Shown: positions 1 to 25,291 of the stretch, one piece after another
How positions within the stretch are numbered: the stretch's first letter is position 1
Layout of the letters: each line of letters opens with the position of its first letter
Assembly (NCBI GenBank): GCA_965208575.1
Contig: CBDBOV010000004.1
Location: 128,001-192,000 of the forward strand
Length of the DNA: 64,000 nt
From: Spirochaetia bacterium
GTDB lineage: Bacteria; Spirochaetota; Spirochaetia; SZUA-6; Bin103
Direction of reading: 5' to 3'
Notes under the pieces: generated by a model
Database searches by the model: none
What the model was told of the DNA's origin: nothing
Seen by the model: only the letters and a program-made list of their open reading frames with translations
Position numbers and translations under genes: made by a program

Positions 1-65
1 GGCTCGGGCGCGATCGAGTACCTCTTGCAGATTGGCCAGTGTATCGAGGAGCGAGCGCGTGTCAA
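1..65 (-). promoter_or_regulatory. Sigma70-like promoter (TTGACA-16 nt-TACACT) plus start of a conserved RNA leader, running off the left edge
   Basis: Minus-strand -35 at 60-65 and -10 at 38-43. Positions 1-28 match 22516-22543 at 27/28 nt. Confidence 0.6.
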
Positions 66-10645: not shown

Positions 10646-12179
10646 GGGTGCATTCCGTCAGTGTGGTAGCGGTCAGGCAGCCTCAAGCTGGATCTGGTTG
10701 GATTCTGGGGTGGGCGATGAGGGCAACAGGCTCTCGAAATCGTCCCAGAAGCGACGGCTCTTCGCCGAAGCGCGGAGCTGAAGCATCTCCTTGGCTCCGT
10801 CCAGCGACCAAGTCATCCCACTCTGCTTCATGCGCTTGGCGACGACGTTCTTGCAGGCTCCCTCGACTACACCGCTGCCGATCGGCAGACCGCACGATCG
10901 ATACAGCGGGTAGTCCATGCGGTGCTGGTTGGCCGTGAAGTAGTTGATCTCGCCCTGGAGGTCGTAGCACTGCTTCTCGCTGTAGCGGCCACTGACGTGC
11001 AGTTCCTGCAGTTCCTTGATTACGGCGGCGACGCAGCCCTTGCGCAGCAGGCTGCGCCAGCGCTTGAAGGATCTCTTGAACTGCTCGCTGCCCTCGCCGT
11101 ACAACACCTTGCCGATCTTCCCCAAGTGGTCGCAGGCATGCCAGAAATCGAGGATGTGCCAGACCTTCTGCCCGGGTTCGGACAGCTGGGAGACCCGGTC
11201 CCATATCCAATGCGCTCCATCGCCCAGAATCACCAGCACCAGCGCTGCCAGGTGAGCGCTGCGCCGGCTCATTTCCACCTCGATCCGGGGAAAGAACTCA
11301 TCAGCATGCTCGATCCCGGTGACACAGGAGGTCTTGGTGCAGTGCGCTGCACCCTCCCGGTCCACCTTCACCGCTGATACCGTCGCTACCTTGGAGTCCC
11401 GAAACACGCGATCGTAACTCTTTTTCCCATCTTCAGTTACCCGCTCGTTCGCGCGTGTCGCCACCTTCCCCGCGTCGATGCCCACGACCATCGTCCCGGT
11501 GATCTCTTCGCGCACCGCCACCGGCTCGTCGGCACGCTCGACAATCTCCCGCTGGCGTTGCTCCGCCAACCCGTCAGTAACCGCCCGCACCATCTCGAAC
11601 GCCTTGTTCATCGACACCAGCTCCCGCCCGTCAGGCCGCAACACCTCGTGGAATTGCGCCAGACCCTGCTCGTAGGACTGCTCGGCGCACCACCGCGCCA
11701 TGAAGTACTGGCACCCAGGCGTGTACCCGCCCGCGATACCCAGTTGCTCTGTCAGCGGCACCCACCCCTTGCCACCGCCACCGAGCGGCGCGTAGTAGGC
11801 GCGCACCAAGGTGATCACGCCGAACAGCCCATGCAGCGTCTTCCGCCGTCTCCCGACAAAGCGGTACCGAACCTCGCCGCGGGTTGCGCGCGCACCGACA
11901 TACCCATCACCGACTTGCTCACACCAGCGTTGCATCGCTGCACGTCCCGCAGCCACCAGGCACTTCAGCATACCGAGCTCCGCGGCGAGCAGATCCCGTG
12001 GTCCGCTGCACGGGTTCAGGTCAATCCCGCACCGGGTCTTGCAAAACCGGAGCAACTCCGTTACCAAGGTCTCACTCATTTTGGTCCCCTCCCAGAGACA
12101 GGTCGATGTTTACCACATCACCGAATCTCTGGTCTCTGGGAGGGTTCCTATTCCGCTACCACAGAGAAAGAATGCACCC
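10646..12179 (-). mobile_element. ISKra4/ISLre2-like IS, element B (1534 bp)
   Basis: IRs GGGTGCATTC...TGTGGTAGCGG at both ends. 9-bp TSD GTAGGCTGA at 10637-10645 and 12180-12188. Confidence 0.9.
10673..12079 (-). CDS. UPF0236/ISKra4-like DDE transposase
   Basis: Motifs VGIDAG, LGDGAHWIW, LDFWHA, PIGSGVVEGACK, GMTW. Confidence 0.88.
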   Translation of the reverse strand: MSETLVTELLRFCKTRCGIDLNPCSGPRDLLAAELGMLKCLVAAGRAAMQRWCEQVGDGYVGARATRGEVRYRFVGRRRKTLHGLFGVITLVRAYYAPLGGGGKGWVPLTEQLGIAGGYTPGCQYFMARWCAEQSYEQGLAQFHEVLRPDGRELVSMNKAFEMVRAVTDGLAEQRQREIVERADEPVAVREEITGTMVVGIDAGKVATRANERVTEDGKKSYDRVFRDSKVATVSAVKVDREGAAHCTKTSCVTGIEHADEFFPRIEVEMSRRSAHLAALVLVILGDGAHWIWDRVSQLSEPGQKVWHILDFWHACDHLGKIGKVLYGEGSEQFKRSFKRWRSLLRKGCVAAVIKELQELHVSGRYSEKQCYDLQGEINYFTANQHRMDYPLYRSCGLPIGSGVVEGACKNVVAKRMKQSGMTWSLDGAKEMLQLRASAKSRRFWDDFESLLPSSPTPESNQIQLEAA

Positions 12180-16055: not shown

Positions 16056-17589
16056 GGGTGCATTCTTTCTCTGTGGTAGCGGAATAGGAACCCTCCCAGA
16101 GACCAGAGATTCGGTGATGTGGTAAACATCGACCTGTCTCTGGGAGGGGACCAAAATGAGTGAGACCTTGGTAACGGAGTTGCTCCGGTTTTGCAAGACC
16201 CGGTGCGGGATTGACCTGAACCCGTGCAGCGGACCACGGGATCTGCTCGCCGCGGAGCTCGGTATGCTGAAGTGCCTGGTGGCTGCGGGACGTGCAGCGA
16301 TGCAACGCTGGTGTGAGCAAGTCGGTGATGGGTATGTCGGTGCGCGCGCAACCCGCGGCGAGGTTCGGTACCGCTTTGTCGGGAGACGGCGGAAGACGCT
16401 GCATGGGCTGTTCGGCGTGATCACCTTGGTGCGCGCCTACTACGCGCCGCTCGGTGGCGGTGGCAAGGGGTGGGTGCCGCTGACAGAGCAACTGGGTATC
16501 GCGGGCGGGTACACGCCTGGGTGCCAGTACTTCATGGCGCGGTGGTGCGCCGAGCAGTCCTACGAGCAGGGTCTGGCGCAATTCCACGAGGTGTTGCGGC
16601 CTGACGGGCGGGAGCTGGTGTCGATGAACAAGGCGTTCGAGATGGTGCGGGCGGTTACTGACGGGTTGGCGGAGCAACGCCAGCGGGAGATTGTCGAGCG
16701 TGCCGACGAGCCGGTGGCGGTGCGCGAAGAGATCACCGGGACGATGGTCGTGGGCATCGACGCGGGGAAGGTGGCGACACGCGCGAACGAGCGGGTAACT
16801 GAAGATGGGAAAAAGAGTTACGATCGCGTGTTTCGGGACTCCAAGGTAGCGACGGTATCAGCGGTGAAGGTGGACCGGGAGGGTGCAGCGCACTGCACCA
16901 AGACCTCCTGTGTCACCGGGATCGAGCATGCTGATGAGTTCTTTCCCCGGATCGAGGTGGAAATGAGCCGGCGCAGCGCTCACCTGGCAGCGCTGGTGCT
17001 GGTGATTCTGGGCGATGGAGCGCATTGGATATGGGACCGGGTCTCCCAGCTGTCCGAACCCGGGCAGAAGGTCTGGCACATCCTCGATTTCTGGCATGCC
17101 TGCGACCACTTGGGGAAGATCGGCAAGGTGTTGTACGGCGAGGGCAGCGAGCAGTTCAAGAGATCCTTCAAGCGCTGGCGCAGCCTGCTGCGCAAGGGCT
17201 GCGTCGCCGCCGTAATCAAGGAACTGCAGGAACTGCACGTCAGTGGCCGCTACAGCGAGAAGCAGTGCTACGACCTCCAGGGCGAGATCAACTACTTCAC
17301 GGCCAACCAGCACCGCATGGACTACCCGCTGTATCGATCGTGCGGTCTGCCGATCGGCAGCGGTGTAGTCGAGGGAGCCTGCAAGAACGTCGTCGCCAAG
17401 CGCATGAAGCAGAGTGGGATGACTTGGTCGCTGGACGGAGCCAAGGAGATGCTTCAGCTCCGCGCTTCGGCGAAGAGCCGTCGCTTCTGGGACGATTTCG
17501 AGAGCCTGTTGCCCTCATCGCCCACCCCAGAATCCAACCAGATCCAGCTTGAGGCTGCCTGACCGCTACCACACTGACGGAATGCACCC
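16056..17589 (+). mobile_element. ISKra4/ISLre2-like IS, element B' (copy of B, inverted)
   Basis: Same length and protein as B. Own 9-bp TSD GGCGCTCCG at 16047-16055 and 17590-17598. Confidence 0.9.
16156..17562 (+). CDS. UPF0236/ISKra4-like DDE transposase
   Basis: Protein identical to the 10673-12079 product. Confidence 0.88.
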   Translation: MSETLVTELLRFCKTRCGIDLNPCSGPRDLLAAELGMLKCLVAAGRAAMQRWCEQVGDGYVGARATRGEVRYRFVGRRRKTLHGLFGVITLVRAYYAPLGGGGKGWVPLTEQLGIAGGYTPGCQYFMARWCAEQSYEQGLAQFHEVLRPDGRELVSMNKAFEMVRAVTDGLAEQRQREIVERADEPVAVREEITGTMVVGIDAGKVATRANERVTEDGKKSYDRVFRDSKVATVSAVKVDREGAAHCTKTSCVTGIEHADEFFPRIEVEMSRRSAHLAALVLVILGDGAHWIWDRVSQLSEPGQKVWHILDFWHACDHLGKIGKVLYGEGSEQFKRSFKRWRSLLRKGCVAAVIKELQELHVSGRYSEKQCYDLQGEINYFTANQHRMDYPLYRSCGLPIGSGVVEGACKNVVAKRMKQSGMTWSLDGAKEMLQLRASAKSRRFWDDFESLLPSSPTPESNQIQLEAA

Positions 17590-21384: not shown

Positions 21385-21575
21385 TCCGCATGGGCAGCCT
21401 CGGTGCGGTCCCAGCGGTCTTCGTTGTCCCGGTCGATCTTGTCGAAGCGCTGGTTCACTTCCTCGAAGCGGCGGTCCATCTTGTCTTCAAGCCGGTCGAA
21501 ACGGACGTTCAGCACGCTCATCGCATCATCAAGGTACGCCTTCAGTTCTGCGTCGGCATTGAGGAGCGGGTCCAC
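21339..21575 (-). CDS. Small coiled-coil protein (RFDRLE/RFEEVNQRFD heptads)
   Basis: GTG start immediately after the upstream gene's stop; same repeat style as 8754-9128. Confidence 0.65.
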   Translation of the reverse strand: MDPLLNADAELKAYLDDAMSVLNVRFDRLEDKMDRRFEEVNQRFDKIDRDNEDRWDRTEAAHADHERRIRELEARPAR

Positions 21576-22358
21576 TCAGCACTCCATCGCGGGGTCGCTA
21601 CTCAAGAACATCCAGGTCCTTCCCGAGTCCAGCCATACGTATCCGCTCGTGTAGTTCTCGCGGCCGTCGGCGTCTACCAGCGACGCCCACGGCACACCAA
21701 GCACCGCCGACGTGACCTGCGTGCCGTCTGGCTCGATCATGGTGAACTGCATATACCTCGGTTCATACTGCCACCGGCCATGACCAATGAGTCCACAGTT
21801 CGGGTTCACCATGGTGGCCGTGCCATCCTCGAAGACCCGAATGTAACCCATTCTGGGGGCGTTTTTGGCCTCTGTCTGCCTGACAGACCAAACGCCAACA
21901 GGGCGGAATCTCTCGATGGCCTCTCTTTCGCGGGTGATTTGGCCGGCGAGATGGCCCATGGCATCCATGTCTCGTCGGTAATTTCGCGATTTGGGCTCTG
22001 TTTCGGGCTCGGTTGCGGCAGGCGGGTCGGGAGGGTCTGGCTGGGTGGCCGGTTGGAGGGAAACCCCTTCACCGTCTGATTCGGGCGGCCCAGCGGCCTT
22101 ATCGGGCTCTGGGCGGAACGCAGGCACTTCGTTTTCCTGCTCGGCTGCCCGCTCCTCCCCCGTAGCGGACGGCGCCGCGTAAGCGACGGTGGCTACTGGT
22201 TTTACTGGCGATTCTTGCGCGTCGGTCGGCGTGTCGGAAATCCCAACACCTACCCCGATCAGGAAGGCGAACAGGGCAACGACGAAATACGAGCCGATGC
22301 GCAGCAGTTTTCGGAACAGGCGCCGGAGAGGACGCTTCTTCGGTTGATTCTCGTTCAT
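21576..22358 (-). CDS. Hypothetical membrane-anchored or exported protein
   Basis: Basic N-terminus and TM helix, Pro/Glu-rich linker, globular beta-rich C-terminus; GAGGTG RBS. Confidence 0.7.
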   Translation of the reverse strand: MNENQPKKRPLRRLFRKLLRIGSYFVVALFAFLIGVGVGISDTPTDAQESPVKPVATVAYAAPSATGEERAAEQENEVPAFRPEPDKAAGPPESDGEGVSLQPATQPDPPDPPAATEPETEPKSRNYRRDMDAMGHLAGQITREREAIERFRPVGVWSVRQTEAKNAPRMGYIRVFEDGTATMVNPNCGLIGHGRWQYEPRYMQFTMIEPDGTQVTSAVLGVPWASLVDADGRENYTSGYVWLDSGRTWMFLSSDPAMEC

Positions 22359-22547
22359 GGATCACCTCTCGTCCCCGGCCCGCAACAAAGGTGCCGGGCT
22401 GGTTCGCAAGAGGCACCACGATCACGCAGTTACTCTGAACTTCTGACCTATTCACGCCACGGCCGGGTAGCTACTCCCATTCGTTGACGACGCTGTTGTA
22501 TTCGACCAGCAGCCCGGCTCGGGCGTGATCGAGTACCTCTTGCTTGA
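22359..22547 (-). ncRNA. Putative structured RNA / 5' leader of unknown family
   Basis: About 21-bp closing stem (22523-22543 with 22406-22427), an inner stem, and alternative GCCGGG/CCCGGC pairings next to the RBS. The 5' arm is conserved at 1-28. Confidence 0.55.
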
Positions 22548-22553
22548 AGGGTC

Positions 22554-22581
22554 AGTGTAGCGCCGGACCGGCATCTGTCAA
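22554..22581 (-). promoter_or_regulatory. Sigma70-like promoter TTGACA-16 nt-TACACT
   Basis: -35 at 22576-22581, -10 at 22554-22559; same boxes and spacing as at 38-65. Confidence 0.65.
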
Positions 22582-22666
22582 CCGGCTGGTTTACTTACAC
22601 TTGGCCATACGTGGGGCACACTTGGGGCAAGGCGGCCGCCACCAAATCACAGGCCGGGAGGATCAC

Positions 22667-22858
22667 ATGATGACGAAAGAGGACAAGGCGTGGATCGCAG
22701 CACTGCTCGACGAGAAGCTCGCTCCGATCCATGCGCGGCTCGACGGCGTGGACAGGACGAATCAAGCGTTGGTCACGGCCGTGACAGACCTACTGGAAGC
22801 CATGCAGAGCCCCCTCGCGTTCCAGATCAAGCGGAATCTGGAACGCGAGTTGGCCTGA
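22667..22858 (+). CDS. Small (63 aa) helical/coiled-coil hypothetical protein
   Basis: GGGAGG RBS; LLDEKLAPIHARLDGVD heptad pattern. Confidence 0.6.
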   Translation: MMTKEDKAWIAALLDEKLAPIHARLDGVDRTNQALVTAVTDLLEAMQSPLAFQIKRNLERELA

Positions 22859-22899
22859 CGAGCCGGAGGCGGTTGACCGGCGGCGTTGGGTGGCGGTAG

Positions 22900-23640
22900 C
22901 CTTGCCCCGATGGCTGACAAGGCGAAGACGAGGAAGGCCGCGAAGCGACCGCGGCGGAGCTTCATCCAGGAGGACTTCGACGAGCTGTGGACTCCGTTGG
23001 CCGTCTCGCCGGAGGCCCTGGCGAAGGCCGTCCTGCGGACTCCAGCGAAGCCGCGCAGTTAGCCTCCGGAGACCTCCTTCCAGGCAGCAGCCTCTGCCTC
23101 GACCAGTTCTTGCCTCGCGGCGGCGTAGTTGTTGACCGCCTCCAGAACGCTGTCCGAGTTAGGAAGCCTGTGCAGCCGGACGGTGGCCTCCGCGCCTTTG
23201 TAAAGAACGGACCGAAGTCCTGAGACAACCCAGAAAAGTCCTTGGACATCTCCTCCAGCCGCGCTTGAGTGCTGGTATGGGCGCTTGGCGTCCTGGAGTC
23301 GGCGGTGCGCTGCGCCGATCGCCTTGATGGTAGGTGCCACGCGCGGCAGCTTACCAGCCACGGCGGGCCAGGGCCAGTGGGCCACTCACCTATATGAGTC
23401 CCCAAAGGTTACGGTGAATCGAGGCGACCTTCAACACGTCCTGGCGATTGGCGATTGGCGATTGTCGAGCGAACACGGGTCAGAAACCGCCAACTGGAAC
23501 AAGCCTGCCTCCATCTGCTGGACGTGATAGCTCATCAGGCGAACATCGTTCAGCAGCGACAGAAAGCGTTGGCCAGCCTTCCACCGCTGCCGGACGATTG
23601 GGACTGATGGCTTGCCGTCGATGGACGACGTGCCGGTGCC
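22900..23640 (-). pseudogene. Possible degraded, multiply frameshifted gene of unknown function
   Basis: Protein-like helical fragments alternate between frames (LSLLNDVRLMSYHVQQME; QARLEEMSKDFSGL; VLEAVNNYAAARQELVEAEAAAWKE). Confidence 0.3.
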
Positions 23641-24750: not shown

Positions 24751-24943
24751 AATTCATTCTGACGTGGAATCGGAGGGCGCACTACACTCGGGACCGTGTG
24801 GCGACTTCCCTGGTGCGGAGCAGCCTCAACCGGCGTAAAGCACCTATGGTGGAGAACTTCGTAAAGTGGCAACAGTAGTGATACCGTCTGCCACCACGAT
24901 AGTATAAGATATTATCCTGCAATCGATTATACAACTGCGACGA

Positions 24944-25291
24944 TGGAGGTGGCGGGAATCGAACCCGCGTCCTGAAAGGTGCGCGTACGGCGTCTACAGG
25001 TTTAGCCGGACTGTTGCGTTCTTGGCGCCGCCTTTGCGAGCCGGCTCACGGGCGGCGGTGCAGCCCGCTGTTTGTCTTTCCCGCCGCACCCGCAGGCCGA
25101 TGCGGCGGTGAGTCCTGAATGGCGTCGGGGATGCTCGTCGCTCAGGACCGCACTTCAAGTCCCCGTGGCTACGTGATTTAGGCAGCCAGTGCTAGATCTG
25201 TATCGGCAGATCAAATTGTCCAGGTTAAGGAGGCTGGACTCCACCTGCAACCGTAAACGTCATGCCTCCCAGTCGAGGCCTTGTCACCCCC
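24944..25291 (-). ncRNA. ssrA: tmRNA
   Basis: 5' GGGGGTG pairs with 3' CACCTCC-A including a G3:U wobble; T-arm GCGGGTTCGATTCCCGC; tag frame at 25207-25178 encodes ADTDLALAA*; adjacent to smpB. CCA is not encoded. Confidence 0.97.

Follow-up and report, generated by a model that had tools for sequence, protein, structure and literature searches.

The minus strand of positions 22359-22581 in the window, by which we mean the whole 64,000-nucleotide stretch analyzed here (positions 128,001 to 192,000 of contig CBDBOV010000004.1 of a Spirochaetia bacterium, assembly GCA_965208575.1), carries a sigma-70-type promoter, then a folded RNA of about 190 nucleotides (nt), and then the start codon of a protein gene. 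Our bioinformatics analyses show that this leader RNA is a real, conserved, and as yet uncatalogued structured RNA, which reaches no family of Rfam 15. An original prediction, made from the letters of the window, had proposed a structured RNA with its own promoter that belongs to no known family. The first part of this proposal is supported by a fold and by covariation across many homologues, and the second also stood, because no Rfam family was reached at threshold and the resemblance to one catalogued RNA, sRNA-Xcc1, is sub-threshold only.

The fold and its covariation

The family alignment comprises 60 distinct members, which were collected by BLAST in 61 related genomes and by an exact-pattern scan with one genome per species, and from which a covariance model (R1) was built. 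In this alignment, helices P2, P3, and P4 of a core hairpin contain 14 pairs with compensatory changes, 92% of the cells are paired, and the covariation score over P2 to P4 is 0.407, compared with 0.195 in shuffles (0 of 500 reached it) and with 0.04-0.09 when the partners were slid. An independent set of 34 further model matches gave 0.441 against 0.204, although the alignment of these matches was fitted to the model and is hence biased toward the structure. Covariation among homologues had been named in the original prediction as a check on the RNA, and it was found in these 14 pairs. The core runs in the order S1, P2, internal loop, P3, A/C-rich bulge, and P4, with GGG/CCC closing a conserved terminal loop, AGUAGCUA; the internal loop, in which GAAUACAACAG faces GAAUA, is likewise conserved, and about 45 invariant nucleotides are retained while the helices drift in sequence.

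The core is enclosed by an outer helix, P1, which is 16-28 base pairs (bp) long (median 20) and has no sequence conservation in 57 of the 60 members, three having been skipped by the parser. The P1 duplex reaches a z score of -3 or lower against shuffles in 62 of 69 rows, some of which are duplicates. G-U pairs account for 120 of the 1169 pairs in P1, and in 48 cases, as opposed to 9, it is the sense strand that folds better; this strand asymmetry, together with the G-U pairs, points to an RNA and not to a DNA element. Downstream of P1 come AACG, S2 with its invariant CCCGGC, a tail that is mostly ACCU, and S3. S2 and S3 form a local hairpin abutting the ribosome-binding site in 54 of 60 members, and the pairs flanking its invariant part swap, with 26 A-U, 9 G-C, and 1 U-A at one position and 19 G-C and 4 A-U at the other (as counted in per-sequence minimum-energy folds). 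S1 and S2 are complementary in all 60 members, with wobble changes only, and the only two sequences in which a G of S2 has become A both have the matching U in S1.

A three-way complementarity of S1, S2, and S3 (GCCGGG/CCCGGC/GCCGGG) is conserved family-wide, and the orientation of the core relative to S2, S3, and the gene is identical in 60 of 60 aligned members. These results bear on the mutually exclusive folds, and the conformational switch built on them, that had been suggested for the window copy: the complementarity of the three segments is conserved, but one of the proposed competing stems, an inner stem contending for part of the same sequence, is not, with 55.8% of cells pairing as against 55.3% in shuffles and a covariation score of 0.089, equal to the shuffle mean. 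A further match that had been pointed out, of 22467-22461 to 22380-22374, is present in the window copy but is particular to it. In many copies, a small hairpin of S1 with CCC just upstream is also possible; its registers shift, and it overlaps the inner end of P1.

Anatomy of the leader in the window

The elements of the window copy and its gene are placed as follows.

22581-22554, minus strand: promoter, with -35 box TTGACA at 22581-22576, a 16-nt spacer, and -10 box TACACT at 22559-22554 (10 of 12 positions matching)
22543-22523, minus strand: 5' arm of P1, the outer helix at the 5' terminus of the predicted transcript, pairing with 22427-22406
22518-22510, minus strand: S1 (GCCGGGCTG), complementary to 22401-22393
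22509-22443, minus strand: conserved core hairpin, P2-P3-P4, with covariation
22509-22505 with 22447-22443, minus strand: P2
22504-22494 (GAAUACAACA) facing 22453-22448 (GAAUAG), minus strand: internal loop
22493-22490 with 22457-22454, minus strand: P3
22483-22476 with 22467-22460, minus strand: P4
22475-22468, minus strand: terminal loop, AGUAGCUA
22427-22406, minus strand: 3' arm of P1, pairing with 22543-22523
22401-22393, minus strand: S2, with the invariant CCCGGC at 22398-22393, flanked here by an upstream CAG and a downstream ACCUUU
22380-22374, minus strand: S3 (GGCCGGG), 3' strand of the local hairpin with S2, immediately upstream of the ribosome-binding site
22370-22356, minus strand: ribosome-binding site (GAGAGGUG) and start codon, the ATG being at 22358-22356
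21576-22358, minus strand: downstream gene for a 260-residue protein (N-terminal membrane anchor, Pro/Glu-rich linker, C-terminal domain)

The promoter at 22554-22581 is the sole promoter-like site within 21400-22900, a stretch of 1.5 kb in which shuffles average 0.3 sites, and transcription is predicted to start from it at about 22547-22543 on the minus strand. The coordinates originally given for this promoter, some 190 nt ahead of the ATG, were confirmed, as were the pairing of the two P1 arms (duplex z of -5.7 against shuffles) and the complementarity of S1 with S2. The core of S1, GCCGGG, occupies 22518-22513 and has the invariant family form GYCGGG; it is extended to 9 nt in this copy. 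For S2, the pairing options are S1 or S3. The 211-nt fold has an energy of -82.9 kcal/mol, compared with -71.5 +/- 4.1 kcal/mol in shuffles (z of -2.75; 1 of 200 shuffles as good). In the window copy, the RNA leads to the start codon without an intervening terminator. For an antisense RNA, another of the functions considered in the original prediction, no indication was found: the structure favors the sense strand, and the RNA, having no terminator, continues into the ribosome-binding site. A small divergent open reading frame (ORF) of 63 codons with no Pfam match lies on the plus strand at 22667-22858 and starts about 85 nt upstream of the leader promoter.

Position in the transcript and genes served

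A sigma-70-type promoter matching at least 8 of 12 positions lies ahead of P1 in 34 of the 60 members (mean score of 7.7 compared with 4.1 in shuffles), and the end of the -10 box is separated from P1 by 2-9 nt in 33 of these 34 and by 14 nt in the remaining one. Because the promoter stands at a fixed distance before P1, the transcript would begin with the P1 5' arm. At the other end of the leader, the start codon follows 26-55 nt past S2 (40 members).

The 260-residue protein of the window has no Pfam family, and no score above 0.83 was obtained for it in the protein atlas. Among 42 first downstream ORFs, 26 are likewise without a Pfam family; the others include immunoglobulin-like (Ig-like) domains (He_PIG, Big_9, HYR, and PKD), leucine-rich repeats, collagen, Calx-beta, trypsin-like peptidase, matrixin, PEGA, TonB plug, a tRNA_anti-like OB fold, and TM2. 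A lipobox-like motif is found in 20 of 57 downstream ORFs as compared with 7 of 313 background ORFs of the same genome, and a hydrophobic N-terminal segment in 39 of the 57 distinct downstream ORFs as compared with 90 of the 313; both features were called with crude heuristics, and the frame is wrong for a few of these ORFs, including that of the window copy. Judged by these features, the genes behind the leader would usually encode lipoproteins or other exported proteins. The proposal that the RNA is a noncoding partner of the membrane and coiled-coil proteins downstream of it does not agree with the genes found behind the family copies, which are very diverse, and the "coiled-coil" ORFs themselves overlap an IS1595 transposase gene on the opposite strand and have no Pfam match.

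Relation to known RNAs

When the whole window was scanned with Rfam 15 at gathering threshold, only transfer-messenger RNA (tmRNA) was found, and in a permissive scan the best match besides tmRNA was the small RNA (sRNA) sRNA-Xcc1 (RF02221). The window copy scores 23.7 bits with this model and the family copies score 17.8-34.9 bits, so that the gathering threshold of 53 is not reached. The alignment of the window copy is nonetheless full-length (model positions 1-87, from S1 to S2), and the two best RF02221 matches in the whole 6.5-Mb genome are copies of the family. The resemblance cannot be due to chance, though it is far below threshold.

For sRNA-Xcc1 of Xanthomonas campestris, an 88-nt RNA, Northern blots showed a discrete band near 100 nt, and the ends have been mapped (PMC2996969). 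In Xanthomonas, the integron cassette with the widest distribution carries it ahead of symE (bioRxiv 10.1101/2025.06.18.660453); a Xylella genome contains seven homologues, of which five form a cluster in a genomic island (PMC12189769). The leader RNA shares with it the GCCGGG...CCCGGC closing pair around a hairpin, the AAUACAA/GAAUA internal loop, and an ACC-U-rich tail; the closing helix that encloses a hairpin with an AUACAA/GAA internal loop is thus present here, and both RNAs are multicopy and partly island-borne. On the other hand, the leader RNA measures 130-145 nt from S1 to S2, whereas sRNA-Xcc1 has 88 nt; P4 with its AGUAGCUA loop is an additional hairpin, and the second internal hairpin is missing, the corresponding segment being the P1 3' arm, which the model bridges with a 27-nt insertion. 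It also adds an outer helix of 16-28 bp with the 5' end of the transcript, and it runs straight into a ribosome-binding site. By sequence and predicted fold, the leader RNA appears to be a long, leader-embedded relative of sRNA-Xcc1 and not a member of RF02221. Literature searches on sponge-symbiont RNAs, riboswitches, sRNA-Xcc1, and the core motif strings returned no description of the leader RNA, the motif strings matching only unrelated primers.

Other known systems show partial likeness. Translational riboswitches, such as the adenine (add) riboswitch, have an aptamer in the 5' leader, and a strand of the closing helix can pair near the ribosome-binding site. A conserved, covarying, aptamer-like fold in a 5' leader is found here too, as is a closing strand that can alternatively pair beside the ribosome-binding site; however, the alternative hairpin of the leader RNA excludes the ribosome-binding site, no ligand can be inferred, the genes are without a metabolic theme, and the 20-bp outer helix is unlike riboswitch P1 stems. 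Bacterial mRNAs may also carry 5'-terminal stabilizer hairpins, for example in the ompA leader. The leader RNA resembles these in forming a helix with the first nucleotides of the transcript ahead of an envelope-protein gene, but such stabilizers have neither a conserved 110-nt core nor the S1/S2/S3 arrangement. Long complementary flanks of free sequence that enclose a structured RNA and were found by covariation are described for precursor-rRNA leader-trailer helices (PMC11404451); here the enclosed RNA is about 110 nt, the setting is an mRNA leader, and processing is putative. A retron noncoding RNA was rejected: the inverted repeats (P1) are present, but no reverse-transcriptase domain occurs in the 42 downstream ORFs or the ORFs of the window. 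An invertible promoter was also rejected, as the promoter is outside the repeats, all 60 members share one orientation, and the repeats are strand-asymmetric with G-U pairs.

Copies and distribution

With R1, six copies are found on four contigs of the 6.5-Mb genome. The earlier observation of two copies in the island around 22359-22581 is therefore true of the island but incomplete for the genome. The recurrence of the promoter boxes and of a 28-mer of the 5' arm at positions 1-65, which had also been pointed out, is real; the genome contains precisely two instances of the 28-mer, which differ at one position (A/G). Only the right-hand part of this other copy (copy A) lies in the window:

1-65, minus strand: copy A, with -35 box at 65-60, -10 box at 43-38, P1 5' arm at 28-7, and the first bases of S1

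The remainder lies to the left of the window (G000:C4:127873-128000), where the RNA has its full length and an R1 score of 90.4 bits. Copy A and the window copy have identical promoter hexamers; the spacer and the coding region have diverged. The gene of copy A (G000:C4:127242-127901) encodes a membrane-anchored tRNA_anti-like OB-fold protein. The ATG after its ribosome-binding site opens just 40 codons, the OB-fold protein being in another frame and starting about 147 nt past S2, which leaves either a short upstream ORF or a frameshifted gene start. The sixth copy (G000:C4:424489-424619, plus strand) is divergent, with 57.9 bits, no CAACAG in its internal loop, and a different terminal loop. 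The ORF behind it has 109 codons and encodes no signal peptide. This copy is either in decay or the representative of a variant class.

Beyond this genome, 17 of 23 further genomes from the same family contain R1 matches, with 1-12 copies each. The model detects no copy among 68 genomes belonging to seven other families of the order, nor among 150 genomes drawn from across the phylum, although the filters were stricter in this last search and may have lost weak matches. Outside the phylum, copies are present in genomes that, by record title, belong to Pseudomonadales (4), Binatia (8), Chloroflexota (3), Bryobacterales (2), and Thermodesulfobacteriota (2), and the record titles of true matches also name Gemmatimonadetes, Terriglobia, Alphaproteobacteria, and several gammaproteobacterial families. 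The RNA is a horizontally spread, multicopy family, confined to one family in its own phylum and shared with six other phylum-level groups. Such occurrence in one family within the phylum yet in six other phylum-level groups marks a horizontally traded regulatory part and not an inherited one, and the spread across phyla speaks against a need for a lineage-specific partner.

Among the 90 pattern matches in genome contigs, 52 had at least two further family signatures; the other 38, in AT-rich DNA, were without further signatures, and 0 of 8 that were tested matched R1. All 28 pattern matches in metagenomes were confirmed by R1 and none of 10 in viral contigs. Five BLAST matches of 24-35 nt in relatives (L012 and L014-L017) were also not confirmed by R1, and BLAST of the RNA against plasmid and phage collections gave no match. 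In related genomes, copies often stand a few kb apart, for example G018:C1:1296819 and 1300500, G012:C1:220795 and 229844, and L032 and L054, which are 5 kb apart in one record. This close spacing suggests tandem promoter-leader-gene units, like the clustered sRNA-Xcc1 homologues in Xylella.

The island and its surroundings

Copy A and the window copy (copy B, 22359-22581) both lie within an island that extends over about 32 kb and is attached on its right-hand side at the tmRNA gene:

24941-25291, minus strand: tmRNA gene (Rfam match of 133.2 bits)

A 14-nt repeat of the tmRNA 3' end is found about 32 kb away, at approximately C4:120591, and a tyrosine integrase gene of 392 codons (Arm-DNA-bind_3, Phage_int_M, and Phage_integrase) is at C4:120778-121956. 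The G+C content is 58-64% in the island as compared with 67-72% to its right, and the region looks like a genomic island integrated into ssrA. The approximately 21 kb between copies A and B (300-21400) consist almost entirely of transposase genes, including IS4-type DDE_Tnp_1 (four ORFs and one of 356 codons) and IS1595 (one intact and one split), together with an IS110 fragment and UPF0236-type genes. Without these intervening genes, the two promoter-leader-gene units would be tandem neighbors. Two ORFs of 468 codons are in inverted orientation at 10673-12079 (minus strand) and 16156-17562 (plus strand). Downstream of copy A, a gene for an N6/N4 DNA methylase (311 residues) overlaps an ORF of 205 codons without a Pfam match (G000:C4:125470-126980; L153 7470-8980), and the two may be a restriction-modification pair; a methylase fragment of 100 residues lies at L153 6110-6412.

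The association with mobile elements that had been proposed holds in part. Both window copies are in an integrase-bearing island at the tmRNA gene, but, of the other four genomic copies, two adjoin insertion sequences and two lie amid housekeeping or ABC-transporter genes with no mobile-element gene within 8 kb. Because of these last two copies, the RNA is not mobile-element-specific; the family at times rides on mobile DNA but is not bound to it.

Discussion

The reading that we favor, and to which we give about an even chance, is that the leader RNA acts in cis on its own message, possibly as a two-state switch with a putative effector. Action in cis is argued by the constant orientation in which the RNA, in every case, leads into a ribosome-binding site and by its tie to a gene class. 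P1 would bury the 5' end and so shield the message from 5'-end-dependent decay, and the invariant core and loops would be the docking site of the putative effector. Since the element functions in seven phylum-level groups, this partner would be expected to be a small molecule or else a component or machine common to all cells. This effector would decide whether S2 pairs with S1, closing the core as in sRNA-Xcc1, or with S3, and the choice of partner would set translation or the fate of the mRNA.

Several observations weigh against this reading. When S2 was blocked in silico, the mean unpaired probability of the ribosome-binding site was 0.50 as compared with 0.55, and the response was inconsistent, with accessibility going down in 17, up in 9, and unchanged in 14 of 40 members. 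With P1 formed, S1:S2 is a pseudoknot across a helix of 16-28 bp, with linkers of 0-12 and 0-5 nt, and P1 is far more stable than S1:S2, which makes a simple equilibrium switch hard to picture. As S1 and S2 are invariant, their pairing is without covariation, the two sequences with a changed S2 excepted. Cytoplasmic proteins, namely an EcoRI-type methylase and a GTPase, are served as well, and the genes share no metabolic theme and give no pointer to a ligand. The likeness to sRNA-Xcc1 is patchy, in that RF02221 gives E values of 10 or lower in just 4 of 18 other loci (34.9, 25.6, 24.8, and 24.8 bits). A more specific proposal, which we consider rather unlikely, is that the leader RNA is a new riboswitch class sensing a signal of a shared habitat (apparently marine-sponge tissue, going by record names), that it has been passed together with its promoter among symbionts of at least seven phylum-level groups, and that it switches on surface and "eukaryote-like" proteins (leucine-rich-repeat, Ig-like, and collagen-like proteins and proteases) in the presence of that signal.

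The main rival, which we see as possible though not probable, is a processed stand-alone sRNA, in which P1 would be an RNase III-type processing helix, comparable to the leader-trailer helices of rRNA, whose cleavage frees a stable core of 130-150 nt, trans-acting or protein-binding in the way claimed for the 88-nt sRNA-Xcc1, and leaves an mRNA with its 5' end capped by the S2:S3 hairpin. P1 is nearly perfect, and its 16-28 bp (median 20) fall in the length class of double-stranded RNase substrates; in addition, different copies could pair with one another through the palindromic UAGCUA of their terminal loops. The known RNA closest to the family, sRNA-Xcc1, also points this way: it was detected at about 100 nt as a discrete species whose ends were mapped (PMC2996969), and in Xylella it is multicopy and island-borne (PMC12189769). 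However, a ribosome-binding site and start codon always follow the leader RNA after 26-55 nt, with constant orientation and no terminator in between, and the link of this RNA to exported-protein genes is one expected of a cis element and not of a free sRNA. A distinctly unlikely alternative would do without sensing altogether: promoter, P1 clamp, and leader would form a constitutive module that stabilizes or insulates the messages of acquired genes, the conserved nucleotides serving folding or the binding of a general factor. That P1 starts at the predicted +1 and buries the 5' end, that most predictions show the ribosome-binding site unobstructed by the S2:S3 hairpin, that the served genes are heterogeneous accessory genes, and that some copies are in islands or beside insertion sequences would all be in agreement with such a module, but a helix suffices for a stabilizer, and neither the approximately 45 nucleotides kept invariant across several phyla nor the conserved three-way complementarity of S1, S2, and S3 is explained by it.

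Two further explanations have little to recommend them. A cis-acting modifier of RNA polymerase, by which processive antitermination of the put or EAR kind would let transcription of foreign genes pass termination signals, would account for an element that comes right after the promoter, is conserved in sequence, occurs across phyla, as a universal polymerase would allow, and precedes varied genes. We regard it as very unlikely, as the Rfam scans gave no similarity to put or EAR, most units are apparently single genes with no obvious terminators to overcome, and the link to exported proteins is left unexplained. Scarcely credible is an element acting at the DNA level, with the 20-bp inverted repeats as recombination sites of an invertible switch or as ends of a small mobile element. 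The repeats do flank a 130-bp segment before surface-protein and restriction-modification genes, classes typical of phase variation, and insertion sequences and an integrase are nearby in the window. The promoter, however, is outside the repeats, in all 60 members the enclosed core is oriented alike with respect to S2, S3, and the gene, and the repeats differ in every copy, with 10% G-U pairs that would be mismatches in DNA and with a sense strand that folds better in 48 cases versus 9.

From a biological point of view, the leader RNA gives the poorly understood sRNA-Xcc1 a functional context, that of a gene leader. It precedes proteins that govern how a bacterium meets its surroundings, such as lipoproteins, adhesin-like repeat proteins, and proteases, and it may thus place the cell surface of uncultured symbionts under shared control.

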